Part shown: positions 21,783 through 61,169 of the stretch, piece after piece
How the letters are laid out: every line of letters starts with the position of its first letter
How positions within the stretch are numbered: the first letter of the stretch is position 1
Origin: a virus
Taxonomy: Duplodnaviria > Heunggongvirae > Uroviricota > Caudoviricetes
Length of the DNA stretch: 64,000 nucleotides
Virus record (IMG/VR): IMGVR_UViG_3300043119_000443
Reading direction: 5' to 3' (one strand)
Program-made: the position numbers and the translations under genes
Notes under the pieces: model-generated
Database searches by the model: none
What the model was told of the DNA's origin: nothing
Seen by the model: the letters and a program-made list of their open reading frames with translations, nothing else

Positions 21783-21818
21783 GGGGCCGGAGAGAAATCT
21801 CCGGCCCCTTTCATTTTG
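21783..21818 (+). terminator. rho-independent terminator
   Basis: GGGGCCGGAGA-gaaa-TCTCCGGCCCC hairpin then TTTCATTTTG. Confidence 0.6.
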
Positions 21819-21848
21819 TCTATTGACCATAATCCGGCCCGGTGGTAG

Positions 21849-21862
21849 CCATTAACCCTAAC
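21849..21862 (+). promoter_or_regulatory. CCATTAACCCTAAC motif upstream of 21889 gene
   Basis: Same 14-mer core recurs at 23191 and 62484. Confidence 0.35.
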
Positions 21863-21888
21863 GCTTCACAGCCAAGGGAATACCAACC

Positions 21889-22347: not shown

Positions 22348-22367
22348 CCGACGTTCTCACCTACCAT

Positions 22368-23182: not shown

Positions 23183-23190
23183 ATTGTGCG

Positions 23191-23206
23191 GCATTAACCC
23201 TAACGG
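23191..23206 (+). promoter_or_regulatory. GCATTAACCCTAACGG motif 10 nt upstream of tape measure start
   Basis: Repeat of the 21849 and 62484 core. Confidence 0.35.
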
Positions 23207-23215
23207 TGCTTAACG

Positions 23216-26119: not shown

Positions 26120-26124
26120 CCATG
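26115..26124 (+). promoter_or_regulatory. GTTAACCATG overlapping start codon of distal tail gene
   Basis: aataGTTAACCATGtcg; ATG 26122. Confidence 0.3.
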
Positions 26125-26739
26125 TCGTTCCATGACGTGCGCCTCCCCGTAGACGTTGAGCGCGGAGCCAGAGGTGGCCCCGGCTTCAACACTGGCGTTT
26201 CCGCGCTCGCTTCAGGCAAGGAACAGCGCAACATTAATTGGGCGCAACAGCGGTGTGCATACGATATTTCTTATGGCATTGGCTCGAAACAGCTCTACCG
26301 GGAAATCCTCAACTTCTTCTATGTGCGCCGTGGCCGGGCGTACGGCTTCCGGTTCAAGGATTGGGCGGATTATACGCTGACCGATGAGAACATCGGCACG
26401 GGCAATGGCGTGTTGACGGCGTTCCAGATCACCAAGACATACAGCGACGCCGCGGCATCGTACGTTCGCAACATCTACAAGCCGGTCAGCGGAACCATTC
26501 AAGTTTACAAAGCAGGCGTTTTGCAAACCGTGACTACGCATTACACCATTAACCATTCGACCGGCGTCATCACGTTCTTGGTCGCGCCGACGGGCGGACA
26601 GGCGATCACGGTCACCGGCGAGTTCGACGTTCCGGTCCGATTCGACACCGACAGTCTGGACGTGACCCTCCAGTGGGTCGAGGCCGGTCAGGTGCAAGGC
26701 ATCCCCCTCGTTGAACTTCGCCCGGAAGATTTGGCCTAA
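26122..26739 (+). CDS. distal tail protein, DUF2460 (RcGTA g12-like)
   Basis: N-terminus MSFHDVRLPVDVERGARGGPGFNTGV... and size/position after TMP match the GTA-type conserved phage protein family. Confidence 0.75.
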   Translation: MSFHDVRLPVDVERGARGGPGFNTGVSALASGKEQRNINWAQQRCAYDISYGIGSKQLYREILNFFYVRRGRAYGFRFKDWADYTLTDENIGTGNGVLTAFQITKTYSDAAASYVRNIYKPVSGTIQVYKAGVLQTVTTHYTINHSTGVITFLVAPTGGQAITVTGEFDVPVRFDTDSLDVTLQWVEAGQVQGIPLVELRPEDLA

Positions 26740-28424
26740 TGCGTCTTGTCCCAGCCCTACTCGCAACGCACCTCGATCAAGAGGTCACGTCGCTCGCGAC
26801 GGTGTGGAAGATCATCCGTCAGGACAACGTCACGTTCCGCCTGACGGATTGCGACGTGCCGCTGACAGTGGCCGGGGAGGTCTATTCCTCGGTCAACTCG
26901 TATCAGCGTACCGCCATTGATACAGCGCTTGGCCTGCGATCCGACAACATGGAAATCAACGGCTTCTTTGATAACGCATCGATCACGCAACAGGACATCG
27001 ACAACGGCCTGTTCGATGGCGCGGAGCTGCGCATCTGGATCGTCAACCATCTCGATACGTCGCAAGGCGTCATCGCGCTCATGCGCGGTAAGCTCGGAGA
27101 ATTCGAACACACCGAAGAAGGCCTGTTCAACGCCACCTTCCGGTCGATCGCGGAAGCTTTTCGCAACCGTATCGGCAACAAGTCGTCTGCCACATGCAGG
27201 ACCGAACTCGGCTCGCTGAAGTGCAAGGTGCCCGTCCAGCCGCCGCTCGTTCAACGTGGCCGGTCTTATGCCGTCGGCGACTTCGTGCGCGTCTTGACCA
27301 ACGCTTCTGGCATCACTCGATACGCGGTTCCGTTCGTCAACCCCAGCTTCGAAAGCGCTCTCGGCGCGGAGTGGGATGTCGTCCAAGGCTTCGTGACGCG
27401 CAGTACCAACCTTGAAGGCATCGGCCCGTACGTCGGCTCCCAGCTTCTTCGTGGCGACACCAACGGCGCGACCAATCAAGTCGAACAGGTAGTCGATCTC
27501 GACACCATCGTGGGCCTCGATCTCGATCTCATCGACACGGGCCGTGCGACGATCTCTGGTGGGGCTCGCGCCCTGTCCGGCACGCTGACATCAGTCCCCA
27601 AGGGGCGCGTCGTGTACGAGCTTCTGGATGAAGCTGACGACGTGACGGCGGTCCTGCTCGACACCGACTTCATCACCTTCTACCCGCAACTGACGTGGGT
27701 CCAGCAAACCTACGCCGACAAGCCTATCCCGCCGCTGTCGCGCAAGCTTCGCGTCACGCTCTGGATGCAGCGCGACCCAGCGACGCTTTACGCCCGGATC
27801 GCGTTCGACGACATCCTGTCCGAGATCACGACCTACGCCAGCGGCTACGGGTTCCAGACATCGTTCGAGAACCGTATCTACGAATGCACCACGGCGGGCG
27901 CTACGGCGACTTCCGCGCCGACCTATGACACTGTCGTAGGCAACCCCACCACGGACGGCACAGCGGTCTTCACGGCCCGCGAGGCGTTCATGAGGCACGC
28001 CACGATCGCGACTGTCACAGACCGCAGGACTTTCACGATCACTGTGACAGAGAGCCGGGCGGTGGACGCATGGTTCGCCGACGGCTCAGTCACCATTGAG
28101 AGCGGGGCCAATCTGGGTAAGACCATTGAAGTCAAAACGTGGACGGATGCAGGGAACATTGTGCAGTGCTTCCTGCCCTTCGCTTTTGACCTTGCGCCGG
28201 GTGACCAGTTGCGCATCTCTCCGGGGTGTGACAAAACCAGACCGACGTGTCGTGACAAGTTCGTGATCACCGGATCGACCGACTTTGCTCTCGGGAATGT
28301 GAAGAACTTCCGCGGTGAACCTGACGTGCCTATCCAAGAAACGCTCCAACTGAAAACCGCCACTTCGGTCCAGCCGCGCGCACCGGCATCGTCCACGCCG
28401 CGCTCCGGCAGCAAATACGGATAA
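26739..28424 (+). CDS. tail hub protein, DUF2163 + phage BR0599-type C-terminal domain (RcGTA g13-like)
   Basis: N-terminus TSLATVWKIIRQDNVTFRLTDCD; C-terminus CDKTRPTCRDKFVITGSTDFALGNVKNFRGEPDVP (Cys-rich BR0599-type motif). Confidence 0.75.
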   Translation: MRLVPALLATHLDQEVTSLATVWKIIRQDNVTFRLTDCDVPLTVAGEVYSSVNSYQRTAIDTALGLRSDNMEINGFFDNASITQQDIDNGLFDGAELRIWIVNHLDTSQGVIALMRGKLGEFEHTEEGLFNATFRSIAEAFRNRIGNKSSATCRTELGSLKCKVPVQPPLVQRGRSYAVGDFVRVLTNASGITRYAVPFVNPSFESALGAEWDVVQGFVTRSTNLEGIGPYVGSQLLRGDTNGATNQVEQVVDLDTIVGLDLDLIDTGRATISGGARALSGTLTSVPKGRVVYELLDEADDVTAVLLDTDFITFYPQLTWVQQTYADKPIPPLSRKLRVTLWMQRDPATLYARIAFDDILSEITTYASGYGFQTSFENRIYECTTAGATATSAPTYDTVVGNPTTDGTAVFTAREAFMRHATIATVTDRRTFTITVTESRAVDAWFADGSVTIESGANLGKTIEVKTWTDAGNIVQCFLPFAFDLAPGDQLRISPGCDKTRPTCRDKFVITGSTDFALGNVKNFRGEPDVPIQETLQLKTATSVQPRAPASSTPRSGSKYG

Positions 28425-28436
28425 CGAGAACCACAT

Positions 28437-31400
28437 ATGGGACTTCGGTTAGGCCTCGCGAAACAGAACATAGAAGTCGGCAAAGTCGAAGAGTTTGCTG
28501 GCGGCGGATCGTATGGGAAAAACATCCCGTACGTGTTCGGCTCGCGCGTGGTCGAGGGTATGCCGCTCTGGTTCGCGCCAATCGAAGAGCGCGTTACCAA
28601 GAAGTCCAAGAAGAAAGGCCAAATCCTCGGCATCGGCGGCACAAAGGTCACCACGACCACGTACGACTACTACGCGTCATTCGCCATGTGGTTTGGCGAA
28701 GGCCCGGCCACCAAGCTCGTGCGTCTCTGGATGGACGATCTTCTGGTGTTCGACGGCGCGGAAGTCGATCTCACTGACCCGGACATCGCCCCGTTCACCG
28801 TGTTTCAGACGCGCTTCGGCAGGCGTCAGATAGTCAACGAACAGTTCAAGATACAGCAAGAGAACCGTATCCCCTACACGGTCTATCTCGGCTCGGAAGA
28901 CCAAGACCAAGACCCGACCATCGTAGCGACCGAAGGCGCGGCTAACACTCCCGCGTATCGCGGGATGTGCTACATCGTGTTCAATCGCGTCAAGCTCGAA
29001 CAGTTCGACAACAAGATTCCGAAAGTCCGTGCGGAGTTCATCTTCGATGTCGGCGGCTCGGACATCAGCATCAGCGAGACGACGCTTGCGGTCGAAGTGA
29101 ATGACCGCGCGCAATTGCAGATCGACTACAAGCGCGGCCTGATCTACACGATGAACGACGGCGTGAACGAAGTCAGCCTCGTCACGCTCGGCTTGGATGG
29201 CACGCTCATCCGCAGCGTGACGTACCCCGATTCGCTGGACGAGGGTTCCGTCGTGATCGACATGGAATTCAACCAGCACTACTCGCGCCGGGGTACGGGT
29301 GGCATCAGACATAACTCGTTCACCGGCGCTGCGGAATACACGGACCATACCAACACCAAGCCACTCACGGGTCGTTTCGGCGGCACGATGCTGTACGCTT
29401 CACCGGGCAGCACGACGCGTTTCCTTTTCACGTCGGGCAGGACATCGTCCTCGATCCACAGGGACATCGCGTCCCACAACATTGAGGTCGGCCAGATCGC
29501 CAACATCTCCGTCTCCACGACTGGAGGCATGACTTCATATGTAACTCCGACTGCCCCGAACGACGCGCGCTTCGGCTTCGCTTACTACATCACCGGCGGT
29601 GTACTTTCCATGGTACGTTGCGACGGTGCGAACGGCACGTTCAAGTCCGACTATGCGACGATGCTCCCCGCCGCGTTCAACCTCGACAGCTTCGACGTAT
29701 CGAGCGCTGCGAAGATCGGCTGGGACGATGGCAATGACCGCGTTGTCGGATTTGTCGCCGGTATCAAGAACAGCGTGTCGGTTGTCCGCATCTTCGCGTG
29801 GTCGGAAGCGACAGGCCTTGCGTGGGTGACCGAAGTTCCGTTCGGCCTGTTCTCCACTGAAGAATACAACATGACCTTCCCGCGCCTGAATGGTGGGCGA
29901 TGGGCGTGGACCAATGGCTCGCAAATCTGCGCCGTCGAGCTTACGGATGGGAAGATCACGACGCAATACGACGGCGTCAACAACGGGTACGTCGGCATCA
30001 GCGGCACAACGCTGTCGCAGGCGTATGACGACAGCACGAACAAACTGTATATGCTCCAGCGCAACGCTGCTGCACCGGACGATCTGCAAGTCATCCAGCT
30101 TTTCCTCGGTGAACAGACGGGCTCTTCGCTGTCGAGCATCGTCCGTAAAGTCGCGAGCGAGTGCGGCTTGGTCGAGGGATATGACTTCGATGTCAGCGCC
30201 ATCGACGACATCCCTGTCCCCGGATACCTGATCTCCAAGACGGATGAGGGCAAGAAGCATCTCGATCCGCTGCTGGAGTTCTTCCAGATCAACGTGGTCG
30301 AGCGCGACCATCGTATCTATTTCGAGGAACGTCAGACCGTGTCGCTCGACACGCTGACCACGGATGACATGCTGTCCGGCAGCAAGGGACAGGTGTTCAA
30401 GCGCGATCGCCAAGAAGAGAGCGCGCTCCCCCAGACCTACGAAGTCGAGTACGTGGACCGCATCCGCGACTACGAGAAAGGCATCCAGCGCGCCAGCCGC
30501 GTGAAGTTCCCTATCCCAACGACGGCGTCTACGAACACCGAGAACTTTGCGATCGACATCGCGCTCAATCCGTCCGATGCCAAACAGCAAGTCGAGAAGC
30601 TGATGTACGCCTCGTGGATCGAGCGTAACGCGTATGAGTTCGGCCTGCCTCAACGGTGGCTCGCCTTTACACCGGGCGATCTCGTGACCTTCGTACAGCC
30701 TTCGGGCTATACGAGCGATATCATGTTCGACAGGCTCGCTATCGGCGCGGACTTCACGATGAAGGCGAACACCGTCGAGCAATCGACCGGGATGTACGTT
30801 TCGTTCGCTACCAGCACCACGGGTAGCTGGAACGATCCGCCCATGTACCTGTCCGCCCCGTCCGAACCGTTCCTGCTCGACATCCCGTTCCTGACGGATG
30901 ACGACGTGCCGACGACCGACAACCTGTCCATCGGATATTGGGCGGGCTCGGACTATGGCGCAGAAACAAACTCTTGGCCGGGCGCGTTCATTCACCGCTC
31001 GTACGATAACCTGATCTATACGCAGTTGGACGCGCGTGTGAACCGCTCCAACTGGGGAATCCTCACGTCGGCGCTCGCCGCGCCCGACAGCCCGTGGGTC
31101 ACCGACAATACCAACGTGGTCAGCGTCTTCATGAACTCCGGCTATCTGGCCGCGTCCGAGTACACGATCTCGAAAGACGACATGCTGACCGGGCTCTACA
31201 ACCGCGCCGTTATCTGCCATGCGGATGGCACGTTCGAGCTGATCTACTTCTCCGAAGTCGTCGAAGTCAGCGATCGTGCGCTGGAGCTTCATTCGCTTCT
31301 CCGTGGCCGTCGTGGGACCGACACCAATCTGGTCGCCGCGGCTGGCGATCGTATCGTCTTCCTGTCGGATGGACTGTACGACGACGACATTTCGACCTAT

Positions 31401-31865
31401 GGCATCTTCGCCCAGCCCATCGCCCAGACGCTCGCTGATGACCAGTTCTACAAGGTCGTGACGCGCGGCCTTCTGGTCAGCGAGACGCTGGCTGAAACGA
31501 CCAAATACACGTGCGCCGATCTCAAGCCGTATGCCCCGGATCATGTCACTGCGTTCCTTGACACCATTGGCGATATCGTCATCAACTGGGAGCGCCGTAC
31601 CCGCATCGGCGGCGAGATGGAAGACTTGATTGACGTACCACTGTCCGAAGAGACTGAGGCGTACGAGATTGACATCTACAACGTCGCGGGTACAACTGTC
31701 CTCCGGACGTTGACTTCGACGGTGTCTCAGGTGGATTACCTCGCCGCCAACGTCCTTACGGATCAACTGACTGCAACTCCGGCCACGCTCAAGGTCGGGG
31801 TCTACCAAATGAGCGCAACAGTCGGACGCGGCTTTGGCCGCATAATCACGGTCGAGGTCGGATAA
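28437..31865 (+). CDS. large tail host-specificity protein (RcGTA g15 / gpJ-like)
   Basis: 1142 aa; N-terminal segment KKKGQILGIGGTKVTTTTYDYYASFAMWFGEGPATKLVRLWMDD resembles the conserved N-terminal core of GTA g15-family proteins; follows g12/g13-like genes. Confidence 0.7.
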   Translation: MGLRLGLAKQNIEVGKVEEFAGGGSYGKNIPYVFGSRVVEGMPLWFAPIEERVTKKSKKKGQILGIGGTKVTTTTYDYYASFAMWFGEGPATKLVRLWMDDLLVFDGAEVDLTDPDIAPFTVFQTRFGRRQIVNEQFKIQQENRIPYTVYLGSEDQDQDPTIVATEGAANTPAYRGMCYIVFNRVKLEQFDNKIPKVRAEFIFDVGGSDISISETTLAVEVNDRAQLQIDYKRGLIYTMNDGVNEVSLVTLGLDGTLIRSVTYPDSLDEGSVVIDMEFNQHYSRRGTGGIRHNSFTGAAEYTDHTNTKPLTGRFGGTMLYASPGSTTRFLFTSGRTSSSIHRDIASHNIEVGQIANISVSTTGGMTSYVTPTAPNDARFGFAYYITGGVLSMVRCDGANGTFKSDYATMLPAAFNLDSFDVSSAAKIGWDDGNDRVVGFVAGIKNSVSVVRIFAWSEATGLAWVTEVPFGLFSTEEYNMTFPRLNGGRWAWTNGSQICAVELTDGKITTQYDGVNNGYVGISGTTLSQAYDDSTNKLYMLQRNAAAPDDLQVIQLFLGEQTGSSLSSIVRKVASECGLVEGYDFDVSAIDDIPVPGYLISKTDEGKKHLDPLLEFFQINVVERDHRIYFEERQTVSLDTLTTDDMLSGSKGQVFKRDRQEESALPQTYEVEYVDRIRDYEKGIQRASRVKFPIPTTASTNTENFAIDIALNPSDAKQQVEKLMYASWIERNAYEFGLPQRWLAFTPGDLVTFVQPSGYTSDIMFDRLAIGADFTMKANTVEQSTGMYVSFATSTTGSWNDPPMYLSAPSEPFLLDIPFLTDDDVPTTDNLSIGYWAGSDYGAETNSWPGAFIHRSYDNLIYTQLDARVNRSNWGILTSALAAPDSPWVTDNTNVVSVFMNSGYLAASEYTISKDDMLTGLYNRAVICHADGTFELIYFSEVVEVSDRALELHSLLRGRRGTDTNLVAAAGDRIVFLSDGLYDDDISTYGIFAQPIAQTLADDQFYKVVTRGLLVSETLAETTKYTCADLKPYAPDHVTAFLDTIGDIVINWERRTRIGGEMEDLIDVPLSEETEAYEIDIYNVAGTTVLRTLTSTVSQVDYLAANVLTDQLTATPATLKVGVYQMSATVGRGFGRIITVEVG

Positions 31866-32587
31866 TGACTACCCCCATTCTCAGCATTGCTGAAGTCTCA
31901 CAATCGCAGTCCAACAAGGAAGTGACGATCAACGAGGCCATCCGTGCGCTTGAAGAAGCAATGCAGGCAACTCGCACCGCCGCGATCGTGGCCGCAACGA
32001 CGCTGACGACCGCGCAGTTCACCGACTTCTTCCGGCATGTCTTCACTGGCACGTTCGGCGCGACGACGGTCACCGTCCCGAACACTCAACGCCTGTTCTA
32101 CGTCCTGAACAACACCAACGGAAACCTGACGATACGTGCAGGGTCGTTTGCTGTTACGGTTGTGATCGAGCCCGGTCAGGGGCGGTTGCTGCATTGCGAC
32201 GGGTCGGATGAGATCACCGAAGTCGGCGGATCGAGCGCTGGCGGCAACGACCATCTCGTCTCGCTGTTCCTCGCGGGCGCGGGCGTGGACGAGAGCAAAG
32301 ACCTGACGTACATCTTCACACGGGCTGTCGATTTCCCGTTGAACCTGACGGACTCGCGCGGTCACGCGGCCACTGTCCACACTGGTTCGTTCGATGTCAC
32401 TATAACCCTCAAGAAGAACGGCGTGGCCTTCGGGTCGGTCGAATTCTTCACCAGCATCAGCACCGCCCACTTCGCTGGCTCGGCCACGAGCTTCGCCGCT
32501 GGGGATCGCCTTACCTTCTCATGCCCGGCGGCGTTCGAAACTCTGGCGGGCATTGCCATCACTCTCGTTGGTGAGATCGTAGCCTAA
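31865..32587 (+). CDS. DUF2793-like tail fibre/spike protein
   Basis: N-terminus MTTPILSIAEVSQSQSNKEVTINEAIRALEEA matches the DUF2793 N-terminal consensus (..L.LP.i...Q.qKhVThNEal..LDal). Confidence 0.5.
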   Translation: MTTPILSIAEVSQSQSNKEVTINEAIRALEEAMQATRTAAIVAATTLTTAQFTDFFRHVFTGTFGATTVTVPNTQRLFYVLNNTNGNLTIRAGSFAVTVVIEPGQGRLLHCDGSDEITEVGGSSAGGNDHLVSLFLAGAGVDESKDLTYIFTRAVDFPLNLTDSRGHAATVHTGSFDVTITLKKNGVAFGSVEFFTSISTAHFAGSATSFAAGDRLTFSCPAAFETLAGIAITLVGEIVA

Positions 32588-33855
32588 TGGCCGCTGGTGT
32601 ATTTTCCAAAGTTGTCCACTTCACTACGCCCGCTTCGACGGGCGACTATGATGTTACGGACGTAGGCATCACAGAGACGCCGAAGCTGGTGATCCTGATC
32701 GGTGGCGCGTCTGGAGCTGGCGAAACCATCGACGCGCGCTTCACCATAGGTGCGTACGATGGCACGGATCAAAACTTCAACGCGGTGTTCGCCCAAGATG
32801 GCGTGCCCGCATCCAACACCGACCGTCGTCGCAACACAGGGCAGATTTACCGCAACGTCGAGAACACTGCGTTCCTCGCCGCTTCCGCTGTGTCCTTCCT
32901 ATCGAATGGCGTGCGTCTCAATTTCGCAACGACGACGGTTGGCCGTCGCATCATGGCTATCTTTTTCTGGGGAGATGACTTCTCCGGGAAAGTCGGCACG
33001 ATCGCTTACGGCACCGGCACTTCGGCGATTGCGGTAACGGGCCTCGGCTTCCAGCCTAACGCTGTGCTATTCCACGCCATCGGACAGGGCGCGGCCAACA
33101 CGGCACTCGGCCTCGGTGTGATGACGCTCGGCATGGCCGCGGACAACAGCGGGGGCATCCAACGTCGAGGCTTCTTCCTGTTCTCGACAGAACCGCGAGG
33201 CGCTGGCCCCGGTCCGTCGTTGTTGATCGACGACACAGTCGCCAACGGCGAACTCTACGGCTCCAACAACACCGGAGACGCCGACCCCGGCCTTGTCATC
33301 GCGTTCAACTCGTTCGACGCAGGCGGGTTCACCGTCACTCCGGCGATAAGCACCGGCAGCGTGACTGGGGCTTATATTGCAATGAGGTTCGGCGGGCGCG
33401 ACGTGACTCTGACGAGCATAGCTTCGCGCACGACGGTAGGCATAGACACCATCTCTCTTGGCTACCAACCCGAATTCTGTTTCGGTGTATCGACACGTCT
33501 TCCGAGTTTCAACAGCGTGGTCGAGCTTGGGAACGACGCTTCCAACTGGAGCGTGTTCGCTGCGGATGGAGACAATGTCCAAGGCGCACAGGCGCTCGCC
33601 GAAAGATACAACACGGACCCGACCCAGTGTAACGAGTGGCTGGATCAAGACAACATGATCCGCATCGGATCGTTGTCCGATCCGGGCATAGAAACGAACC
33701 CGCTCGTGGTAGCCCAGATGACAGCCGTGGCCGATGGTATCGAGCTGAACTACACGACGGTGAATGCGACCGCTCGCCAAAGCTGGATGTTCTCCGTCGA
33801 AGGTGAAGCACCTCCCGCATCCCTCTACGCCGCCAGCCGATTCTTCTTCAACTAA
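32587..33855 (+). CDS. putative tail fibre protein (422 aa)
   Basis: Gly/Thr/Ala/Ser-rich, coupled (TAATG) to previous fibre gene. Confidence 0.4.
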   Translation: MAAGVFSKVVHFTTPASTGDYDVTDVGITETPKLVILIGGASGAGETIDARFTIGAYDGTDQNFNAVFAQDGVPASNTDRRRNTGQIYRNVENTAFLAASAVSFLSNGVRLNFATTTVGRRIMAIFFWGDDFSGKVGTIAYGTGTSAIAVTGLGFQPNAVLFHAIGQGAANTALGLGVMTLGMAADNSGGIQRRGFFLFSTEPRGAGPGPSLLIDDTVANGELYGSNNTGDADPGLVIAFNSFDAGGFTVTPAISTGSVTGAYIAMRFGGRDVTLTSIASRTTVGIDTISLGYQPEFCFGVSTRLPSFNSVVELGNDASNWSVFAADGDNVQGAQALAERYNTDPTQCNEWLDQDNMIRIGSLSDPGIETNPLVVAQMTAVADGIELNYTTVNATARQSWMFSVEGEAPPASLYAASRFFFN

Positions 33856-51192: not shown

Positions 51193-53769
51193 ATGACCCA
51201 ACCCGTCCCCAATGCGAAGTGGCTCCGACAATATCAGCCACTCGGGAACCGACTTATTCCTCTCTGTGATTATCGTGCGCTGTCCAAACAGGGCAAGCCT
51301 CTTGGTAAGACGCCATCCGTAAAGGACTGGACTAAGGACACATTCGAACACGCCAATATGGTTAAGTGGATGGAGGATGGCAATAACGTCGGCTTCCGTC
51401 TAGGCGACGGCTGGGGCGTTCTCGATTACGACCCAAGGCGCGATCCAGTCATTATGAAGTTGAAGCAAGAGAACGTCCACGATGATGTTCTCAGACTGCG
51501 TGAAACCGTCGGGCAGCGGAGCATCGACAGGCTTCTTGCTGACGTTGGTATTCAGCACGGCCAATACGCATTCGTCGAGACGGGCGGGCGCGGCCTGCAC
51601 ATCTACCTGAAAATCCCGGTGGGGTTCCGCGGGCGCGAACAGCTCAAGGAATATCCGGGCGTCGAATTCAAGCACAGCAACCGCCGCTACGTCGTCGCCA
51701 TGGGGTCAATCCATCCCGGCGATGAGAAGGAAGGCATTGCGCCGGGCAACTATTACAAGCCGGGCGACCAGTCGTTCGCGCTTATGAACACGATCTCATC
51801 GCCGCCGAAGCTCACGGAGCTTTTCAGCCACATCGATCCACCAGATTACGTCAAGCAAGCAGGAGAAGAGAGCTTTGGTCGGTTTTCGTCTTTCCAGCTT
51901 GCCGACACGCTCGCGTTGATTCCGCCGGAGACATTCCGGTCGGGGTCAGACCCATCATGGGAACAGTTCATGATGGCGTGCCACTGGATGACAGGCGGCA
52001 CGGGGCGTGAAGAATTCACTGACTGGTCCATCAGCGACCCGATGTACTCGGACCAAGATGAGATCATCCGCAGGCGTTGGGACAGTCTCACGCCGAAGGT
52101 GGACAGCCTGAAGACCGGGCTTGTCTTCAAGGTGCTCGCCCAGCTCAACATACCGCGCAGCAAATGGCCGACGGAAAGCGCGAGCGTCATGTTCGCGTCC
52201 GATCTGGACGACTTTTCGGCGCAAGAGCTTGAGGGCGAGATCATGCCCGAAAGCGCTGAAGCCAAGATCGTCAAGGCGATGAACGATGAGCACGCTCTCG
52301 TCATGATGACGACCGAACCCTTCTACATGGGCAACACCTATCACACGCTGTCCGGCACCGTTATTCCGGTGTTCCGCAAGCGCAGCGCCATGGTGGAGAT
52401 ATACGCGAACAAATCGCTGATAACCTCTGTCGCACAAGCGGGCGGTGAGAAGAAGATGGAGATGACCCACTTCGATTTCTGGCGTCGCCACCCCCAGCGC
52501 CGTCAATACATGGGCGTCGATTTCGCACCGGGCAGCGATCCGGAATTCATGACGCCCACTGGCATGTACTATAACACATGGCGCGGCTGGCCGTTCGATC
52601 CGGAGTTCCGCGGCAACGGAAACTGGGACAGGCTGAAAGAGATATTTTTCGAGAACATCTGCGACCGCGACAGAGAGATGTTCGACTACGTCATGAAGTG
52701 GATGGCGTACTCCGTCCAGCATCCGGCGGGCGCGCAGCGCGTGGCGTTCGTCATGCAGGGCGACAAAGGTCTTGGCAAGTCGATGTTCGCGAACGCATGG
52801 CGCGATATGTTCGGCAAGCACGGCCTGACGACCGATGAGAAGGACGACGTGTTCGGTCGCTTCAACAACCAGATGTCATCGACGCTCGCGCTCTTCCTTG
52901 ACGAAGCCCTGTTCGCCGGTGACAAATCCATCGACGGCAAGGTCAAGCAGCGTATCAACTCTCCGACGATCCGCGTCGAAGAGAAGTACATGCCCCAAGT
53001 CAATATCAAGAACCATCTGAAGTTCATGATCGCGTCCAACGATCAGCACGTGGTCGCGGCAACGCAGGGCGAGCGCCGTTACGTCGTGACGGATGCCAAG
53101 ATGAACATCCGCAAGCCGAATGCGATCTATGAGAAGGCGCATGAAGACCTGTACGGCACGCGCCAGCGCCCGCACACCGACGGCATTCAGGCGATGTTCT
53201 ATGACCTGATGCACCATGAGATCGGCGACTTCGAACCGGAGCGCGATCGCGTCACCTCGTCGGCGCTTCGCCGCCAAGTCCGTATCGAGTACGGCGACCG
53301 GGCCGAATGGTGGATCGAACGCATCGTCAACGAATCGATGCCGATGATGTTTGACCCCTCACCGACATACCGGGCGACTAAGGGCGTTGTAGCTAACTGG
53401 CATAAGCGACCGATTGCAGTGCCCGTCACTGCATTGCGTGAATCCATGAAGCTGTTTATGGGTGATCGGCTCAAGGGCGAACTACTGTTCGACTTCAAGG
53501 CGCGCTTCCTGACCGCCATCCAGTTCATGCTCCCGGAGACGACGGAGAGCAAGCGTCGGATGAAGCTCCCGGAAGGGATCGACTTCATGGGCGTCGATGC
53601 CGCAGAGAACGGGATGGCCGAATGCATCGTTCTGCCGCCGCTCCCCGTGTGCCGGGCGCACGTCGAAAACCTGTTTGGCAATCTCACCGGCGAAGTGATG
53701 CAGGATTTCGAGGCCGATGATCGATATGGTGTGGATGACATCGGCGACGATCTGGATGGTCTTGTCTGA
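51193..53769 (+). CDS. bifunctional primase-polymerase / D5-P4-type SF3 helicase
   Basis: N-terminal prim-pol-like region (GFRLGDGWGVLDYDPRRD...GRGLHIYLKIP), C-terminal Walker A GDKGLGKS and D5_N-like region. Confidence 0.8.
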   Translation: MTQPVPNAKWLRQYQPLGNRLIPLCDYRALSKQGKPLGKTPSVKDWTKDTFEHANMVKWMEDGNNVGFRLGDGWGVLDYDPRRDPVIMKLKQENVHDDVLRLRETVGQRSIDRLLADVGIQHGQYAFVETGGRGLHIYLKIPVGFRGREQLKEYPGVEFKHSNRRYVVAMGSIHPGDEKEGIAPGNYYKPGDQSFALMNTISSPPKLTELFSHIDPPDYVKQAGEESFGRFSSFQLADTLALIPPETFRSGSDPSWEQFMMACHWMTGGTGREEFTDWSISDPMYSDQDEIIRRRWDSLTPKVDSLKTGLVFKVLAQLNIPRSKWPTESASVMFASDLDDFSAQELEGEIMPESAEAKIVKAMNDEHALVMMTTEPFYMGNTYHTLSGTVIPVFRKRSAMVEIYANKSLITSVAQAGGEKKMEMTHFDFWRRHPQRRQYMGVDFAPGSDPEFMTPTGMYYNTWRGWPFDPEFRGNGNWDRLKEIFFENICDRDREMFDYVMKWMAYSVQHPAGAQRVAFVMQGDKGLGKSMFANAWRDMFGKHGLTTDEKDDVFGRFNNQMSSTLALFLDEALFAGDKSIDGKVKQRINSPTIRVEEKYMPQVNIKNHLKFMIASNDQHVVAATQGERRYVVTDAKMNIRKPNAIYEKAHEDLYGTRQRPHTDGIQAMFYDLMHHEIGDFEPERDRVTSSALRRQVRIEYGDRAEWWIERIVNESMPMMFDPSPTYRATKGVVANWHKRPIAVPVTALRESMKLFMGDRLKGELLFDFKARFLTAIQFMLPETTESKRRMKLPEGIDFMGVDAAENGMAECIVLPPLPVCRAHVENLFGNLTGEVMQDFEADDRYGVDDIGDDLDGLV

Positions 53770-53783
53770 ACTTGACTTCTTTG

Positions 53784-53792
53784 GTTAACTAT
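53784..53792 (+). promoter_or_regulatory. GTTAACTAT motif next to TTGAC after primase gene
   Basis: aaCTTGACttctttgGTTAACTATGGctactg. Confidence 0.25.
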
Positions 53793-53825
53793 GGCTACTG
53801 ATAGGGGTGTAGAGGTCACACCCCC

Positions 53826-54155
53826 ATGGCAGTTCAAATTCGTGTATCCAAAGATGGACAGTTCGTCGGCGAGTCCATCAAGGGCGCACCGGCGATCGAC
53901 GAGGATGTTACCCCGGCAACGAGCCCTTCGTGGAGCGCGGCTTTTCCCGTTTTGACCAACTCCGGCCAAGAGCGGCTGGTTGAGTTCATCGTCGATGAAG
54001 ACGTTGAAATTGCTGTAGTTCGTGGCAACCGCAGCGTCAACACCGTCACCCCTATTCGTTTGATCCTGCCCGTCGCGGGTACGATGATTCACACTTTGCT
54101 GCTCAGCCTGCCGGGCGAGACGACAACGTGGAACTTCTATTTCAGGACACCATAA
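53826..54155 (+). CDS. hypothetical protein (109 aa)
   Basis: ORF directly upstream of giant gene. Confidence 0.4.
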   Translation: MAVQIRVSKDGQFVGESIKGAPAIDEDVTPATSPSWSAAFPVLTNSGQERLVEFIVDEDVEIAVVRGNRSVNTVTPIRLILPVAGTMIHTLLLSLPGETTTWNFYFRTP

Positions 54156-54158
54156 TAC

Positions 54159-57100
54159 ATGACAACGAAGTTTTATCCCGATCCTGTATCGACTGGCGTT
54201 CTCCCTAACTCGATCACCAACAACGATCTGGTTCAGGTTCCCGCCCTGACGGTTAAGGGTAACCAGACGAACGCGACCGCCGATGTCAACGACATCGCAG
54301 CGTCCACGAACGATCGCCTGTTCGCGCGCGTCTCGGACGTTCTGGCGTTTACCCAGCTCACCAACGGCATGGTCGCGACCAACACCATTGGCCTCGACAA
54401 GCTGGCTGACGCCGCTGCGGTGTCCGTCCTTGGCCGTTCGGCTGGCACCGGCGGTGCTCGCGCCGACATCACGGCAAGCGCCAACGGACAGTTCCTTGGC
54501 CGCTCGGGCGGTACTCTGTCCTTCCAAGCCATCACCGGCGCTCTCGTCTCGAACACTCCGGCGGGCAACCTCATCGCGACTGACGCACAAGGCGCGATCA
54601 ACGAACTTGATTCCGAGAAGGCCGGGCTCACGCTCGCCAACACCTTCACCCAAGACAACACGTTCAACGGGTACGTCTCCGCTGCGTCGCTCCGCATCGG
54701 CGCGAACGAAGTCGTTGACGCGAACCGTATCTTCCGTCCGCGCTCTTATACCATCTCGACTGTCCCCAGCGTCACCGCGACGGGCCTCATCCACGTCTCC
54801 GATCTCGGCGGCGGTGGTGCCACGCTTCAGTCGAACGGCTCCGAGTGGAACCGTGTCAAGGAAGAAGGCACGATCAACGTCACTGTCGATGCCAACCTCA
54901 CTTTCACGTGGGATCGCCTGACCGACGCTCCGGTGACCCGTGCTAACGTCGCTCTTACCGCTGACCGCACTGTCACGCTCTCCACGACTGGATGCGCCAA
55001 CGGTGACCGCGCCGCGTTCGTGCGTTCTGCCGCAGCGACCGGCGCGTTCAACTGGAACATCGCGGGCAACACCACGACGGCTCTGGCCGCGGCTCTGGAC
55101 TGGGTCGTGTACGAGTTCGACGGCACGCAATGGAACATGATCCAGAAGTTCAGCGCGGGCGGCGGTGGCGGCGGCACGTACACCGCTGGCGCTGGCCTCG
55201 ACCTCGTTGCGGATGAGTTCTCTATCGAGACTGGCGGCGTTGTCGAAGGTATGCTCGCCAACGATGCGGTCACGTTCGCGAAGATGCAGAACATCGCGAC
55301 CGACCGACTGATTGGCCGCGATACGGCTGGCACGGGTGATCCGGAAGTGATCACTGTTGGTGGTGGCCTCGAATTCACCGGCTCTGGTGGCATCCAGACT
55401 TCAGCCTTCACGGGCGATGTCACGAAGTCCGCTGGGGGCACGGCCCTCACGATCGGCAACGATGCCGTCAGCTTCGCGAAGATGCAGAACATCGCCAGCG
55501 ATCGTCTGATCGGTCGCGACACCGCCTCGACCGGCGATCCCGAAGAGATCACTGTCGGTGGCGGTATCGAGTTCACGACGACTGGCGGCATCCAGACTTC
55601 GGCCCATACGGGCGATGTCACGAAAGCCGCTGGCGGCACTGCGACTACGATCGCCGCCAACGCCGTGTCGGATGCCAAGTTCCGCCAGAGTGCGGCGCTG
55701 TCCGTCGTTGGCCGTTCGGCCAACTCTACCGGCAACGTCGCTGATATCGCAGCGGGCGCAAACGATCGTCTTCTGACGCGCGTCGCGGACGTTCTCGCCT
55801 TCACGCAGATCACCAATGGCATGATCCCTGTCAACACCGTTGGCGTTGACAAGCTCGCTGTGTCCGCTACGGACCGCCTCGTTGGCCGTGATACGGCTTC
55901 CGCTGGCGCAGGCGAAGAGATCACTGTCGGCGGTGGCCTCGAATTCACCGGCTCTGGCGGTATCCAGACGACGGCCTTCACGGGCGATGTCACCAAGACC
56001 GCGGGTGGCACTGCGCTGACGATCGCTAACGACGCGGTGTCGTTCGCGAAGATGCAGAACATCGCTACTGACCGACTGATTGGCCGTGACACGGCATCGA
56101 CGGGCGACCCCGAAGAGATCACTGTCGGTGGTGGTATCGAGTTCACGACGACTGGCGGCATCCAGACTTCGGCCCATACGGGCGATGTCACGAAAGCCGC
56201 TGGCGGCACTGCGACCACGATCGCCAACGACGCGGTGACGAACGCGAAAGCCGCCAACATGGCCGCGCGTACCGTCAAGGTCAACGCGACCAACGCTTCT
56301 GCCGACCCGCAAGACCTTCAGGGCACGACGGCTCTCCACGTTCTGCGCGTCAACGCCGCTGGTGATGGACTTGAATTCGGTGCTGTGACCAGCGGAACGA
56401 CTTACACGGCTGGCGCGGGCCTCGACCTTGTCGCCGATGAATTTTCTATCGAGGCGGGCGGCGTGGTTACGACCATGCTCGCCAACGACAACGTCACGTT
56501 CGCGAAGATGCAGAACATCGCCAGCGATCGCCTGATTGGCCGTGACACTGCATCGACGGGCGATCCGGAAGAGATCACTGTCGGTGGCGGTATCGAGTTC
56601 ACGACGACTGGAGGCATCCAGACTTCGGCCTTCACCGGCGATGTCACCAAGACCGCTGGCGGAACGGCCCAGACGATTGCCAACAACGCCGTCTCCGACG
56701 CGAAGTTCCGCCAAAGTGCGGGCGTGTCCGTCGTCGGTCGTTCTGCCAACTCTACCGGCAACGTCGCGGATATTACCGCTGCGGCCAACGATCGTATCCT
56801 GACGCGCGTCTCTGACGTTCTTGCGTTCACTCAGCTCTCGGACGGGATGGTGCCGACCAACACCATCAGCGCGACTAAGATGGCCCTGACCGCGACTGAC
56901 CGTCTTATCGGTCGCGACACCGCTTCCGGCGGTGCGGGCGAAGAGATCACGGTCGGTGGTGGCCTTGTGTTCACCGGCACCGGCGGTATTCAGACGACGG
57001 CCTTTACCGGCGATGTCACCAAGACGCTTGGGGGCACGGCCCTCACGATCGCGAACAACGCTGTCACCGACGGCAAGTTCCGCCAGAGCGCGGCCACGTC

Positions 57101-58475
57101 TGTCGTTGGACGTTCGGCTGGCACGACTGGCGACGTTGCGGATATCGCCGCGGCGACCAACGGTCACTTCCTCGGTCGCTCGGGCGGCACGCTGTCGTTC
57201 CAAGCAATCACCGGCGCGCTCGTCACCAACGTCGCAGCGGGCAACATCGTCGCGACCACTGTGCAGGATGCGATCAACGAGCTGGATGGCGACAAGGCCG
57301 GGCTCACCCTCGCTAACATTTTCACTATCGGTCAATTTATTCGCACGACTACGGCTGTTGCGCTCAACTTGGATGGCGACGGGGCCTCTCCCGCAATCCG
57401 TCAAACCCGTTATGGTGCGGTAAGCGGCGCTTCGAACTTCGACCAGCGTAAGGCGCGCGGTTCGTTCGCCTCACCGACGGCGGTGCTTACCAACGACATC
57501 CTCTCGCAGAACATTTCGTCAGGGTACGGCGGAACGACGTTTCAACAGGCGTTTGTAGCGGCAGTTACGGTCATCGAGACTACTCCGTCCGACACGGCGA
57601 TGGGCTCGCGATGGACGGGCGAACTTTCGGCTATTGGTAGCGTCACGCCGACCGAGATTTTCAGGTGGGAAGTCGCTACCGGCTTCTCAATGTACGGTGC
57701 CAACCCCGTTATCGACAACAACCGTATCTTCCGTCCGCGGTCCTACACCGTCTCGACGCTCCCGACTGTCACCACGACGGGTATCATCCACTGCTCCGAT
57801 CTCGGCGGCGGTGCCGGTACGCTCATCTCGGACGGCACGGGCTGGACGCGTGAAGACACCACTGGCACGATCACGATCGCGACCGACGCCGGACACACCT
57901 TCACGTGGGATCGCCTAACGGACGCTCCGGTCACGCGCGGCAACGCTACGCTGACTGCGAACCGCACTGTTACGCTGTCCGGAACCGGATGCCGCAACGG
58001 CGACCGCGCCATGTTCGTCCGACTCGGTGGCGGTGCGTTCAACTGGAGCATCGCGGGCGGCACGACCTTCGACCTGACCGCCGCGAACCAGTTCTGCACG
58101 TTCGAGCACGACGGCACGTCTTGGAACATCATCGACGCGGGCAACATCTCCATCTCTGGCGGTAGCTCTGGCGTGGCCGTGGAAGAAGAAGGCGGTGCCG
58201 TCGCCACGGCGACCACTTTGAATTTCATCGGCTCCGGCGTTACCGCTACCAACGCAGGCGGCGGACAGGTGGATGTCACTATCTCTGCGGGCGGTGGTGT
58301 GGACGTGGAAGACGAGGGCGCTGTCGCTCTCGCCGCGGCCACTACCTTGAATTTCGTCGGTGCTGGTGTTACTGCTACGAACGCTGGCGGCGGACAGGTG
58401 GATGTCACCATTCCGGGGAACTCCGGACCTTCTCTTGGTCTGTATCTCGGTATCCGTAGCTCAATGTACTTTTAA
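54159..58475 (+). CDS. giant repeat-rich fibre-like protein (1438 aa)
   Basis: Gly/Thr/Ala-rich; ~8 tandem ~63-aa units (DRLIGRDTASTGDPEEITVGGGIEFTTTGGIQTSAHTGDVTKAAGGTATTIANDAVSFAKMQNIA...) and duplicated N-/C-proximal domains. Confidence 0.7.
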   Translation: MTTKFYPDPVSTGVLPNSITNNDLVQVPALTVKGNQTNATADVNDIAASTNDRLFARVSDVLAFTQLTNGMVATNTIGLDKLADAAAVSVLGRSAGTGGARADITASANGQFLGRSGGTLSFQAITGALVSNTPAGNLIATDAQGAINELDSEKAGLTLANTFTQDNTFNGYVSAASLRIGANEVVDANRIFRPRSYTISTVPSVTATGLIHVSDLGGGGATLQSNGSEWNRVKEEGTINVTVDANLTFTWDRLTDAPVTRANVALTADRTVTLSTTGCANGDRAAFVRSAAATGAFNWNIAGNTTTALAAALDWVVYEFDGTQWNMIQKFSAGGGGGGTYTAGAGLDLVADEFSIETGGVVEGMLANDAVTFAKMQNIATDRLIGRDTAGTGDPEVITVGGGLEFTGSGGIQTSAFTGDVTKSAGGTALTIGNDAVSFAKMQNIASDRLIGRDTASTGDPEEITVGGGIEFTTTGGIQTSAHTGDVTKAAGGTATTIAANAVSDAKFRQSAALSVVGRSANSTGNVADIAAGANDRLLTRVADVLAFTQITNGMIPVNTVGVDKLAVSATDRLVGRDTASAGAGEEITVGGGLEFTGSGGIQTTAFTGDVTKTAGGTALTIANDAVSFAKMQNIATDRLIGRDTASTGDPEEITVGGGIEFTTTGGIQTSAHTGDVTKAAGGTATTIANDAVTNAKAANMAARTVKVNATNASADPQDLQGTTALHVLRVNAAGDGLEFGAVTSGTTYTAGAGLDLVADEFSIEAGGVVTTMLANDNVTFAKMQNIASDRLIGRDTASTGDPEEITVGGGIEFTTTGGIQTSAFTGDVTKTAGGTAQTIANNAVSDAKFRQSAGVSVVGRSANSTGNVADITAAANDRILTRVSDVLAFTQLSDGMVPTNTISATKMALTATDRLIGRDTASGGAGEEITVGGGLVFTGTGGIQTTAFTGDVTKTLGGTALTIANNAVTDGKFRQSAATSVVGRSAGTTGDVADIAAATNGHFLGRSGGTLSFQAITGALVTNVAAGNIVATTVQDAINELDGDKAGLTLANIFTIGQFIRTTTAVALNLDGDGASPAIRQTRYGAVSGASNFDQRKARGSFASPTAVLTNDILSQNISSGYGGTTFQQAFVAAVTVIETTPSDTAMGSRWTGELSAIGSVTPTEIFRWEVATGFSMYGANPVIDNNRIFRPRSYTVSTLPTVTTTGIIHCSDLGGGAGTLISDGTGWTREDTTGTITIATDAGHTFTWDRLTDAPVTRGNATLTANRTVTLSGTGCRNGDRAMFVRLGGGAFNWSIAGGTTFDLTAANQFCTFEHDGTSWNIIDAGNISISGGSSGVAVEEEGGAVATATTLNFIGSGVTATNAGGGQVDVTISAGGGVDVEDEGAVALAAATTLNFVGAGVTATNAGGGQVDVTIPGNSGPSLGLYLGIRSSMYF
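55180..57070 (+). repeat. in-frame tandem coding repeats inside giant gene (approximate bounds)
   Basis: ttcgcgaagatgcagaacatcgc recurs at 55273, 55471, 56053, 56497; unit ~190 nt, nested in larger ~440-580 nt super-repeats. Confidence 0.7.
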
Positions 58476-58487
58476 GGAAACGCAACC

Positions 58488-58901
58488 ATGGTCGCCAACG
58501 TCGAACCGATTTTCACCCACATCCCGAACATCGGGATCGCGGACGCATGTACCGCCGCCAACACGACGAAAGACCTCACGTCGGGCACGAGCTATCTCGC
58601 GTTCACGGCGGGCGCAGACGGGGCGTTCCTTCAGAAGCTCACCATCAGGCCGAAGGGTACGAACGCGGTCACGGTTATGCGCGTGTTCCTCAACAACGGC
58701 GGTGCGACGACTACGGCCACGAACAACGTGCTGTTTGCAGAACTCAGCTTGCCCGCCACGACCAACGTCGAAAACGCTTCGATCGTGGGCTACGAGTTGC
58801 CGATGAACATCGCTCTCCCGGCTGGCTGGCGCGTCTACGTCACGCTCGGCTCGGTCGTCGTCGGTGGCTACGCAGTGTCGGGTGTCGGTGGAGACTACTA
58901 A
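58488..58901 (+). CDS. hypothetical protein (137 aa)
   Basis: TAATG-coupled to first Gly-rich gene. Confidence 0.4.
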   Translation: MVANVEPIFTHIPNIGIADACTAANTTKDLTSGTSYLAFTAGADGAFLQKLTIRPKGTNAVTVMRVFLNNGGATTTATNNVLFAELSLPATTNVENASIVGYELPMNIALPAGWRVYVTLGSVVVGGYAVSGVGGDY

Positions 58902-59749
58902 TGCTCTCCAACACACTAAACATCCGTAACGAGAAGCGGACGTTCAAGTTCTTCTCTCGCGGGGTGGACTACCAACCGTATAGTCCGTCGCCGGAAGCCG
59001 TCGCTATTCAGATTTTCGCAGTCGGAGCTGGCGGCGGCGGCGGACGAGGCTTCACGGGCATCGCGGGCGCGGCTCGCGGTGGTGGCGGCGGGGGCGGCGG
59101 GGGTGGTATCCTCCGGGCTGTCCTGCCGACGTTCCTGCTCCCCGATACAATCTTCCTGAAGCCGGGCATAGGCGGTGCGACTACCGTCGCAGGTAGCGCC
59201 TCCGTCATCAGCCTTCGCCCCATCGACGCAACGGCCAACAATATCTATACGGTCGGCGGTGGCGGTGCAGGCGGTACTGGTACGGGCGCTGCGGCGGGCT
59301 CTGCGGGCTCCGCAGGCGTCATCGGTACCAACGGCATATTCTCGGACCTCGGTGTGTTCCTGTCGATCGCTGGCCTCGCTGGCGTGGCAGGCGGCGGTGT
59401 TGCTGCTGCCGGTGTCAGCATCACACCGACGCGTATCGTCTCGGGCGGCGCGGGCGGCGCGGGCTGTACCGGCGCGGACCTCGCGGGTGGCAACATCACC
59501 GCATCGGGCTTCTTCCCCCTTATCTCCGGTGGGGGCGTCTCTGGCGGCGAAGGCTTCAGCGGTATCACGTCTTGGAAACCATTCTTCGCATCGGGCGGGT
59601 CGGGTGCTGGTTCGTTCAACGCTGGCCCCGGTGGGCGTGGTGGCCCCGGCGGCATAGGTTCCGGTGGCGGTGGCGGCGGCGCGGGCACAACCGGCGGCGA
59701 CGGCGGACGTGGCGGCGACGGCATCATCTTCATCACCGAACTCTTCTAA
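58901..59749 (+). CDS. glycine-rich protein (282 aa), paralog 1
   Basis: KRTFKFFSRGVDYQPYSPSPEAVAIQIFAVGAGGGGG...GGDGGRGGDGIIFITELF; long poly-Gly tracts. Confidence 0.55.
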   Translation: MLSNTLNIRNEKRTFKFFSRGVDYQPYSPSPEAVAIQIFAVGAGGGGGRGFTGIAGAARGGGGGGGGGGILRAVLPTFLLPDTIFLKPGIGGATTVAGSASVISLRPIDATANNIYTVGGGGAGGTGTGAAAGSAGSAGVIGTNGIFSDLGVFLSIAGLAGVAGGGVAAAGVSITPTRIVSGGAGGAGCTGADLAGGNITASGFFPLISGGGVSGGEGFSGITSWKPFFASGGSGAGSFNAGPGGRGGPGGIGSGGGGGGAGTTGGDGGRGGDGIIFITELF

Positions 59750-59765
59750 TCGACGGGAGACAGTA

Positions 59766-60620
59766 ATGTTCTACGATCCGTCGAACATGCGCCAAACCAA
59801 GCGCACGTTTAAGTTCGTCTCTCGCGGTGTGGACTGGCAGGCGTTCCTTCCCTCGCCGGAAGCCGTCGCGCTTGAAATCTTCATGGTCGGTGGCGGCGGC
59901 GGTGGCGGCAATGGCTTCTCACGGGGCGCGGGCGCTCCGGGCGGTGGTGGCGGCGGCGGTGGTAGCGGCGGTATCTTCCGGGCTGTAATCCCGACCATTC
60001 TTCTGCCAGATACGATCTTCCTGAAACCGGGCATAGGTGGCGCTGCTGTCACTGCGGGTAGCGCCTCCATCATCGGTCTGCGCGCGGCTGACTCCACTAC
60101 TTCCAACATATACACGGTGGGTGGAGGTTCTAATGGTGGTACGGGCACGGCAGCGGCAGCGGGCACTCTAGGCAACGGGGGCGCGGTCGGCACCAGTGGC
60201 CTGTTCTCTGACTACGCTGACTTCCTCGCGATCGCTGGTCAGGCTGGCGTAGCCGGGGGCGCGCAGACTGGTGCAGTGGGAGCCAGCGTGACACCGTCGC
60301 GTATCGTGACGGGCGGCGCTGGCGGTGCTGGTTGCACCACAACCGACTTCGCGGGTGGCAACATCACCGCGACCGGGCTTATCCCCCTAGTGTCGGGCGC
60401 TGCGGGCGGCACTGGCGAATCGGGCAGCAACGGCCTTTCGAACTTCAAACCCTTCCTGTCCTGCGGCGGTGCGGGCGGTGGCTCGCGCAACACCTTCAGC
60501 GCTGGCGCGGGTGGTCAAGGTGGCCCCGGCTCTGGCGGCGGTGGCGGTGGTGCGGGTGTCACCGGCGGCGCGGGTGGACGTGGCGGCGACGGCGTGATAT
60601 TCATAACTGAAATCTTCTAA
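59766..60620 (+). CDS. glycine-rich protein (284 aa), paralog 2
   Basis: Same architecture as 58901..59749, colinear along whole length (KRTFKFVSRGVDWQAFLPSPEAVALEIFMVGGGGGG...GGAGGRGGDGVIFITEIF). Confidence 0.55.
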   Translation: MFYDPSNMRQTKRTFKFVSRGVDWQAFLPSPEAVALEIFMVGGGGGGGNGFSRGAGAPGGGGGGGGSGGIFRAVIPTILLPDTIFLKPGIGGAAVTAGSASIIGLRAADSTTSNIYTVGGGSNGGTGTAAAAGTLGNGGAVGTSGLFSDYADFLAIAGQAGVAGGAQTGAVGASVTPSRIVTGGAGGAGCTTTDFAGGNITATGLIPLVSGAAGGTGESGSNGLSNFKPFLSCGGAGGGSRNTFSAGAGGQGGPGSGGGGGGAGVTGGAGGRGGDGVIFITEIF

Positions 60621-60634
60621 GGGAAGGAACCCCC

Positions 60635-61132
60635 ATGGCCTTTACTGAAACGACCCACTCGACGACGTTCTACGCCCAGATGTACGATCCGGCCAAACCG
60701 GAGCGTGGCTTCGGCGCGTTCGTCAATCGCGTCACGGTCAAGGAATACGAGGATGGCACTCGCGTCGTCGAGCCGGAAGTCCAGAAGGACATGGCCGTCG
60801 CCGTGAAAGAGGGTATCACCCTCCCGTCGGTGCTGGCCGAATTCAACATGATCTCCGCGGCGCGCGTCGTGGAGCTGGAAGCGATCGTCAAGGTTGAAGA
60901 TGACGAGAAAGCCGCTCTCAAGTCTCAGGTTGAGCGTATGACCGCCCAGATCGTCGAGCTGCGCGAAGTCCTGATCGAGACGGCGCAGGCATTGCGCGAC
61001 GCCACGAACGGTGCTGAAGTCGCTCGGGTGGACGCCTCCCTGATGTCCAGCGCAGACGCGATCGCCACGGTTGATGCGATCAAGGCCGACAACAACAAGT
61101 CGATCTGGAACCCGCTTAGCTGGTTCCGTTGA
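60635..61132 (+). CDS. hypothetical protein (165 aa)
   Basis: Follows Gly-rich paralogs; coiled-coil segment. Confidence 0.4.
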   Translation: MAFTETTHSTTFYAQMYDPAKPERGFGAFVNRVTVKEYEDGTRVVEPEVQKDMAVAVKEGITLPSVLAEFNMISAARVVELEAIVKVEDDEKAALKSQVERMTAQIVELREVLIETAQALRDATNGAEVARVDASLMSSADAIATVDAIKADNNKSIWNPLSWFR

Positions 61133-61139
61133 TACAAAC

Positions 61140-61167
61140 CCTCGGTACTTGGCCGTAAGTACCGAGG
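61140..61167. terminator. bidirectional terminator hairpin between convergent genes
   Basis: CCTCGGTACTT-ggccgt-AAGTACCGAGG perfect 11-bp stem. Confidence 0.5.
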
Positions 61168-61169
61168 AA

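Follow-up and report, generated by a model that had tools for sequence, protein, structure and literature searches.

The Fibre Cassette

The window, that is, the whole 64,000-nucleotide stretch of viral DNA analysed here, belongs to a siphophage. Its plus strand encodes the terminase, portal, scaffold, major capsid protein, tail tube and tape measure, together with an RcGTA-type baseplate (DUF2460, hub and an Rcc01698-like "megatron"). A replication module lies on the minus strand; a primase gene is located at 51193–53769. Beginning 390 nt after the primase gene, five tightly spaced genes form a fibre cassette, whose features are the following.

54159–58475, plus strand: fibre shaft protein of 1438 aa with DUF5907 repeats, first gene of the cassette
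58431–58472, plus strand: C-terminal peptide of the fibre (last 14 residues, SLGLYLGIRSSMYF), hydrophobic, proposed docking peptide
58488–58901, plus strand: 137-aa jelly-roll protein, conserved, proposed adaptor
58901–59749, plus strand: glycine-rich paralog 1 (gene 1), 282 aa
59766–60620, plus strand: glycine-rich paralog 2 (gene 2), 284 aa, same fold as gene 1
60635–61132, plus strand: 165-aa protein, last gene of the cassette
61139–61168, minus strand: terminator-like hairpin with a 12-bp stem (pattern scan, consensus match only)

The hairpin separates the cassette from convergent minus-strand genes. The cassette adjoins the primase gene (51193–61132) and is located about 20 kb from the tail module (20179–33855); the fibre genes of RcGTA are likewise found outside the structural cluster.

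The 1438-aa fibre matches Pfam PF19264 (DUF5907) in nine stretches (E 1e-29). Tandem repeats of 198 nt (55255–55655 and 55865–56248) and 129 nt (58169–58408) occur in its gene, and the protein carries twice a domain of about 170 residues (residues 157–329 and 1156–1326; 58% identical, E 1e-64). The initial annotation, made from the sequence of the window, had placed the two glycine-rich genes after this giant repeat protein. They do form one operon with it, but they do not follow it directly, the 137-aa gene being located in between.

Small genes located directly 3′ of fibre genes often encode assembly chaperones; T4 gp38 is a chaperone, but its counterpart in T2 and S16 is an adhesin. In Pam3, the fibre gene is followed by a gene encoding a 162-aa chaperone (PMC9608196). 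The glycine-rich proteins could, by the same token, be fibre assembly chaperones similar to T4 gp38 or Tfa and be missing from the mature virion, and the initial annotation had allowed for their turning out to be ordinary tail-fibre chaperones. We regard this as very unlikely, since the glycine-rich proteins have no match to a chaperone family and their solved homologs (see below) are virion components. A chaperone family or structure match (Tfa, T4 gp38, Pam3 gp25) was found neither for gene 1 and gene 2 nor for the 137-aa and 165-aa proteins.

The 165-aa protein, with homologs detected in L005 and L007 alone, the two closest phages, was considered separately as a candidate chaperone of the Pam3 gp25 type. 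It exhibits weak family matches, all below the cut-offs, with nothing useful in NCBIfam. Its search against PDB sequences gave no match, so that no homolog of Pam3 gp25 was detected by this route and a gp25-like role for this protein is unsupported.

Two Glycine-Rich Paralogs

The boundaries of both genes are well defined. The ATG of gene 1 overlaps the TAA of the upstream 137-aa gene (TAATG), and gene 2 is preceded by a GGGAGA Shine-Dalgarno sequence. Together with the starts of their homologs, these signals indicate that the longer ORFs obtained mechanically, at 58547–59749 and 59664–60620, begin too early. Two proline-rich ORFs of the minus strand (59245–59736 and 59771–60193) were also discarded: they are mirror images of GGN codon runs and not genes.

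As the initial annotation had recognized, both ORFs encode adjacent, colinear glycine-rich proteins of about 280 residues. They share 65% identity over their full length, with two one-residue gaps (BLASTP with composition-based statistics, E 2e-59), and both have the conserved termini it had described, KRTFKF.SRGVD.Q...PSPEAVA at the N-terminus and GGRGGDG.IFITE.F at the C-terminus. Glycine accounts for 29–30% of the residues in the two proteins. Their local alignment score is 968, whereas 300 composition-preserving shuffles give 152 ± 16 (z = 51); the similarity thus far exceeds the chance expectation from 30% glycine. At the nucleotide level, the genes are 70% identical, with dS of 0.87, dN of 0.26 and dN/dS of 0.30, which indicates an old duplication with both copies kept by purifying selection. 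Gene 1 and gene 2 are thus true paralogs.

Identity between the paralogs is lowest at residues 201–245, with further divergence at 96–113 and 126–170. The comparison with homologs, which the initial annotation had suggested, revealed that the differences concentrate in columns which are also variable across the family, conservation being 0.42 in columns where the paralogs differ vs 0.63 where they agree.

Family Membership and Fold

A word-indexed search detected 632 relatives of gene 2, nearly all of them stand-alone proteins of 280–320 residues, and many carrying the Pfam domain PF21722 (Gly_rich_2). An exhaustive profile search retrieved 3761 clusters at 50% identity (E ≤ 1e-3), most of about 300 residues, 1092 of which were found at E ≤ 1e-30. 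The family has no NCBIfam name and is annotated merely as "hypothetical", and no description of PF21722 or Gly_rich_2 was found in a literature search. Among GenBank phages, the 8-kb region had no match by blastn in distant mode and gene 1 had none by tblastn, a result to which the BLAST low-complexity filter may contribute.

With 13.8 and 15.8 bits, respectively, gene 1 and gene 2 score under the PF21722 gathering cut-off of 24.3 bits. Their coverage of the model is nearly complete (positions 9–223 and 13–223 of 226), and PF21722, which is matched at E ≤ 1e-3 by 34 of 51 aligned family members, is the sole family matched. Bxb1 gp33 is a clear member of PF21722 (45.4 bits), and a glycine-rich homolog from Cypionkella reaches 28.9 bits. 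The profile of the glycine-rich family searched against PDB sequences matches Bxb1 gp33 (E 2e-4), and hhalign aligns the family with this protein at 96.5% probability. Given the coverage of the whole domain and the homology to members, gene 1 and gene 2 are treated here as probable divergent members of the PF21722 homologous group, which the Pfam model does not formally capture.

The AlphaFold2 model of gene 2, calculated with the family alignment as input, has a pLDDT of 92.1 and a pTM of 0.88. It contains about a dozen short strands, most residues being neither helix nor strand (DSSP), and it superposes on solved glycine-rich lattices. The closest structural relatives are Bxb1 gp33 and Pam3 gp24, in agreement with the Foldseek ranking, and the model displays the β-sandwich of the "brush" class, with interleaved glycine-rich loops and superposable on solved members. 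Remote homology and structure prediction, both proposed as checks by the initial annotation, hence recovered the solved fold of these two proteins.

Bxb1 gp33 has been described as the "tail wing brush" (PMC12646305). In Pam3 gp24, a fibre of the virion, the loops of a TNF-like sandwich extend into a glycine-rich domain; this domain contains 12 Gly motifs, and its distal tip is variable and binds the receptor (PMC9608196). Bundles of glycine-rich polyproline-II-type helices have been reported in both proteins, as well as in gp29 and S16 gp38 (PMC13243192). By analogy with the bundles of gp33 and gp24, the poly-Gly tracts of the window proteins are most likely structural lattice elements rather than disordered low complexity. 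Gene 1 and gene 2 thus most likely belong to a known class, the polyglycine-rich "brush" adhesins, and do not represent a new kind of protein.

A different character had been suggested by the initial annotation, which likened the C-termini to a GGxGxD Ca-binding-type nonapeptide and raised collagen-like or β-roll folds. Each C-terminus does contain one GGRGGDG(I/V)I nonapeptide match, and the high glycine content of both proteins would suit a Ca2+-binding RTX β-roll or a collagen-like triple helix. Both are nevertheless almost certainly wrong. The GGxGxDxUx match is single in each protein, without a tandem array, and its Asp is kept in just 27 of the 51 family members. The longest G-X-Y run amounts to five triplets in gene 1 and three in gene 2, with about 4% proline. 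Neither protein has an RTX or collagen match in Pfam at E ≤ 1, and the confident model fits another, already solved fold.

The solved relatives differ from the window proteins in their surroundings. Bxb1 gp33 (PDB 9D93, chains Qa/Qb; PF21722) has the same fold, but its partners gp30 (the carboxypeptidase "wing base") and gp31 (the "wing arm") are without counterpart here, the 137-aa protein having no detectable similarity to gp31. Bxb1, which has a mycobacterial host, encodes a single copy, while the window phage combines two copies with a long repeat fibre and an RcGTA-type baseplate. Pam3 gp24 (PDB 7YPX/7YFW) shares the fold in its distal part and possesses its own trimerising N-terminal helical shaft, docked to a myophage baseplate. 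In the window phage, by contrast, a protein of its own, of 1438 aa, serves as the shaft, and the 137-aa protein stands in between. The best functional analogy is S16 gp38 (PDB 6F45), an adhesin encoded after the fibre gene which caps the fibre tip and consists of a polyglycine-II sandwich with variable tip loops (PMC13243192, PMC9608196); gene 1 and gene 2 showed no qualifying fold or sequence similarity to gp38 of the S16/T2 type. The resemblance to the glycine-rich (TG) domain of ALK/LTK, animal receptor tyrosine kinases which bind cytokines, is at the level of the fold only (15–17% identity in structural alignment), with no likeness in family or function.

A Conserved Module in Phages and Bacterial Genomes

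With the 137-aa protein as a probe, 158 IMG/VR loci and 107 bacterial-genome loci were identified, 80 of each being fetched. This protein has 190 homologs, the columns of an alignment of 44 sequences being 66% identical on average, and it is conserved more than either neighbour gene. It has no family name in Pfam or NCBIfam, and its family profile matched no PDB sequence. In 88 of 130 loci, including the window, its stop codon and the start codon of the first glycine-rich gene overlap as T(A/G)ATG.

On the other side, the upstream fibre gene nearly always stops about 10 nt 5′ of the 137-aa gene. The upstream ORFs range from 60 to 2636 aa and are varied in domain content (150 loci, 128 distinct C-termini), but they share a conserved hydrophobic C-terminal peptide of about 14 residues. 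Over these 150 loci, their C-termini are hydrophobic in 57–75% of cases at positions −10 to −7, −4 and −2, vs a background of 30%, with frequent Gly at −13 and −11. The peptide listed above for the window is replaced by variants such as KYGVQVALNQQSFVN and LNAHGQIHARMLVMG in other loci. From this pattern, the hydrophobic C-terminal peptide of the fibre is proposed to act as a docking peptide.

In loci without a glycine-rich follower, the 137-aa gene is followed instead by other receptor-binding-like proteins or by more divergent glycine-rich proteins, and followers of either type tend toward an aromatic-Pro start segment. Followers which are not glycine-rich, e.g., a β-helix-like protein of 503 aa, were found in L019, L022, L055, L061, L063, L067, L073 and the Undibacterium set L119–L154; in the latter set, the fibre also has a distinct end (…LYLYNNF). 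In the literature searched, no description was found of a module made of a docking peptide, a jelly-roll adaptor and one to three adhesins, with chromosomal copies by GTA-type fibres.

Copy Number of the Glycine-Rich Genes

In the 160 loci fetched, the 137-aa gene is directly followed by zero to three glycine-rich copies and never by more than three. Among loci having enough downstream sequence, zero, one, two and three copies were counted in 13, 17, 5 and 27 IMG/VR loci, which were not dereplicated (the three-copy arrays represent 18 distinct groups), and in 10, 45, 1 and 1 bacterial genome loci. Examples of three-copy loci are L015, L021, L036, L057 and L083 in IMG/VR and L109 among the genomes. 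From the ceiling of three copies, we infer that one adhesin may sit on each subunit of a three-fold adaptor.

Paralogs inside three-copy loci are 32–54% identical to each other. When arrays are compared, the best match is found at the same position in 434 of 918 comparisons vs about a third by chance, which is a weak signal of position-specific orthologs, such as an ancient fixed heterotrimer might have left.

The closest relative found, L005 (IMGVR_UViG_3300017716_002524), is 77–89% identical to the window in nucleotide sequence across the region. Its only glycine-rich gene is located at 1550–2398, and gene 2 is absent. Close relatives therefore differ in copy number, and a single copy is enough. 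The L005 gene was also considered as a possible recombinant of gene 1 and gene 2; this was ruled out, as it is orthologous to gene 1 from end to end (79–82% amino acid identity).

In solved homologs, it is the distal loops that vary (PMC9608196). The simplest reading of the pair in the window, judging from sequence divergence, is that the two paralogs would provide two binding specificities.

Tail or Head Location of the Fibre

DUF2793 forms the N-terminus of the upstream fibre in the majority of alphaproteobacterial genome loci, which come from Cypionkella, Pseudorhodobacter, Phyllobacteriaceae, Hyphomicrobiales and Aestuariivirga. In Cypionkella aquatica, for example, this domain covers residues 24–110 of the fibre (E 3e-32), and the associated glycine-rich protein scores above the Pfam cut-off. 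DUF2793 is the domain of Rcc00171, the tail fibre of RcGTA (PMC5026251), which is attached to the megatron protein of the baseplate (PMC7296036). Rcc00171 itself ends in its own β-propeller foot and has not been described with a glycine-rich partner. The fibre of the window phage lacks DUF2793, although the baseplate is of the RcGTA type.

The Cypionkella aquatica trio of DUF2793 fibre, 137-aa and glycine-rich genes (L085; BSPP01000003.1, 8374–11280) is located among housekeeping genes. It adjoins the genes for a UDP-glucose dehydrogenase and an epimerase, with no phage genes within 10 kb. Other genomes of Cypionkella and Pseudorhodobacter contain further such trios, whose 536-aa fibres are near-identical (L093–L105). 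The Cypionkella/Pseudorhodobacter trio may represent a gene-transfer-agent tail-fibre locus.

The initial annotation had suggested that the glycine-rich proteins are fibre-associated or collar components. The first of these terms is supported by the operon shared with the 1438-aa fibre, by the relatives gp33 and gp24, which are virion fibre or tail-tip proteins, and by the genome homologs, which follow a DUF2793 fibre. As for the second, the same proteins with the same fold could be carried by head or neck (collar) fibres instead of a baseplate tail fibre. The head spikes of RcGTA offer a parallel, since they combine a jelly-roll base with a terminal docking peptide (PMC7296036): the ring of the base grips one fibre via a terminal peptide of alternating Ile/Leu-Gly. 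The nearest fold of the 137-aa adaptor is a capsid cement protein, and one relative carries the cassette between its tail-completion and tail-tube genes. We nonetheless judge a head or neck position unlikely. The prevalence of DUF2793 among the alphaproteobacterial upstream fibres argues for the tail, and gp33 and gp24 are tail components. The glycine-rich and 137-aa family profiles match no RcGTA chain among PDB sequences, the base (Rcc01079) and the fibre (Rcc01080) of the head spike included. A tail fibre location is therefore favoured.

Proposed Assembly and Function

Collectively, these data support that gene 1 and gene 2 probably encode paralogous virion adhesins of the polyglycine "brush" class. 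The two genes make up the distal part of the five-gene fibre operon. Each glycine-rich protein would fold about ten β-strands into a TNF-like sandwich. The glycine-rich loops between the strands, with about 12 Gly motifs, would pack into a lattice, made up of polyglycine-II helices in the solved homologs, and contact with the host surface would be made by the more variable loops at its far end.

Regarding their attachment, the hydrophobic C-terminal peptide of the 1438-aa fibre would bind the 137-aa jelly-roll protein. The latter would in turn hold the glycine-rich proteins, possibly via their N-terminal aromatic-Pro segment and first strand. The two paralogs would provide two surfaces for binding, combined within the same tip or distributed over separate fibres. 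Exchangeable fibre-tip adhesins are the best reading of these proteins. Their paralogy, the selection on them, the homology of fold and the conserved module are demonstrated here, while virion incorporation, docking order, stoichiometry and receptor binding are inferred.

A broader and distinctly more doubtful proposal, whose parts are to be taken jointly, is that the locus exemplifies a plug-in tip system. A hydrophobic end of about 14 residues on any fibre shaft, the 137-aa adaptor and up to three interchangeable receptor-binding proteins would assemble with three-fold symmetry, one protein per subunit, the tip proteins being usually of the polyglycine "brush" type and sometimes of other folds. 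The same tentative proposal would make this system widespread, apparently undescribed, and common to alphaproteobacterial phages and to chromosomal, possibly GTA-linked, tail-fibre loci, with the second paralog of the window phage as a recently retained or added second specificity.

Significance

Few solved structures contain proteins with polyglycine-II lattices; in phages, such proteins are found at the point that decides host range. The family is large (3761 clusters) and known only as "hypothetical", so that the fold and the probable role proposed here can be assigned to thousands of proteins from metagenomes. The part deserving follow-up is the module around the glycine-rich proteins. If the three-part docking module is real, it would constitute a compact and naturally exchangeable handle for fibre retargeting, and it would connect the fibres of phages with those gene-transfer-agent loci of Rhodobacterales and Hyphomicrobiales that encode tail fibres.
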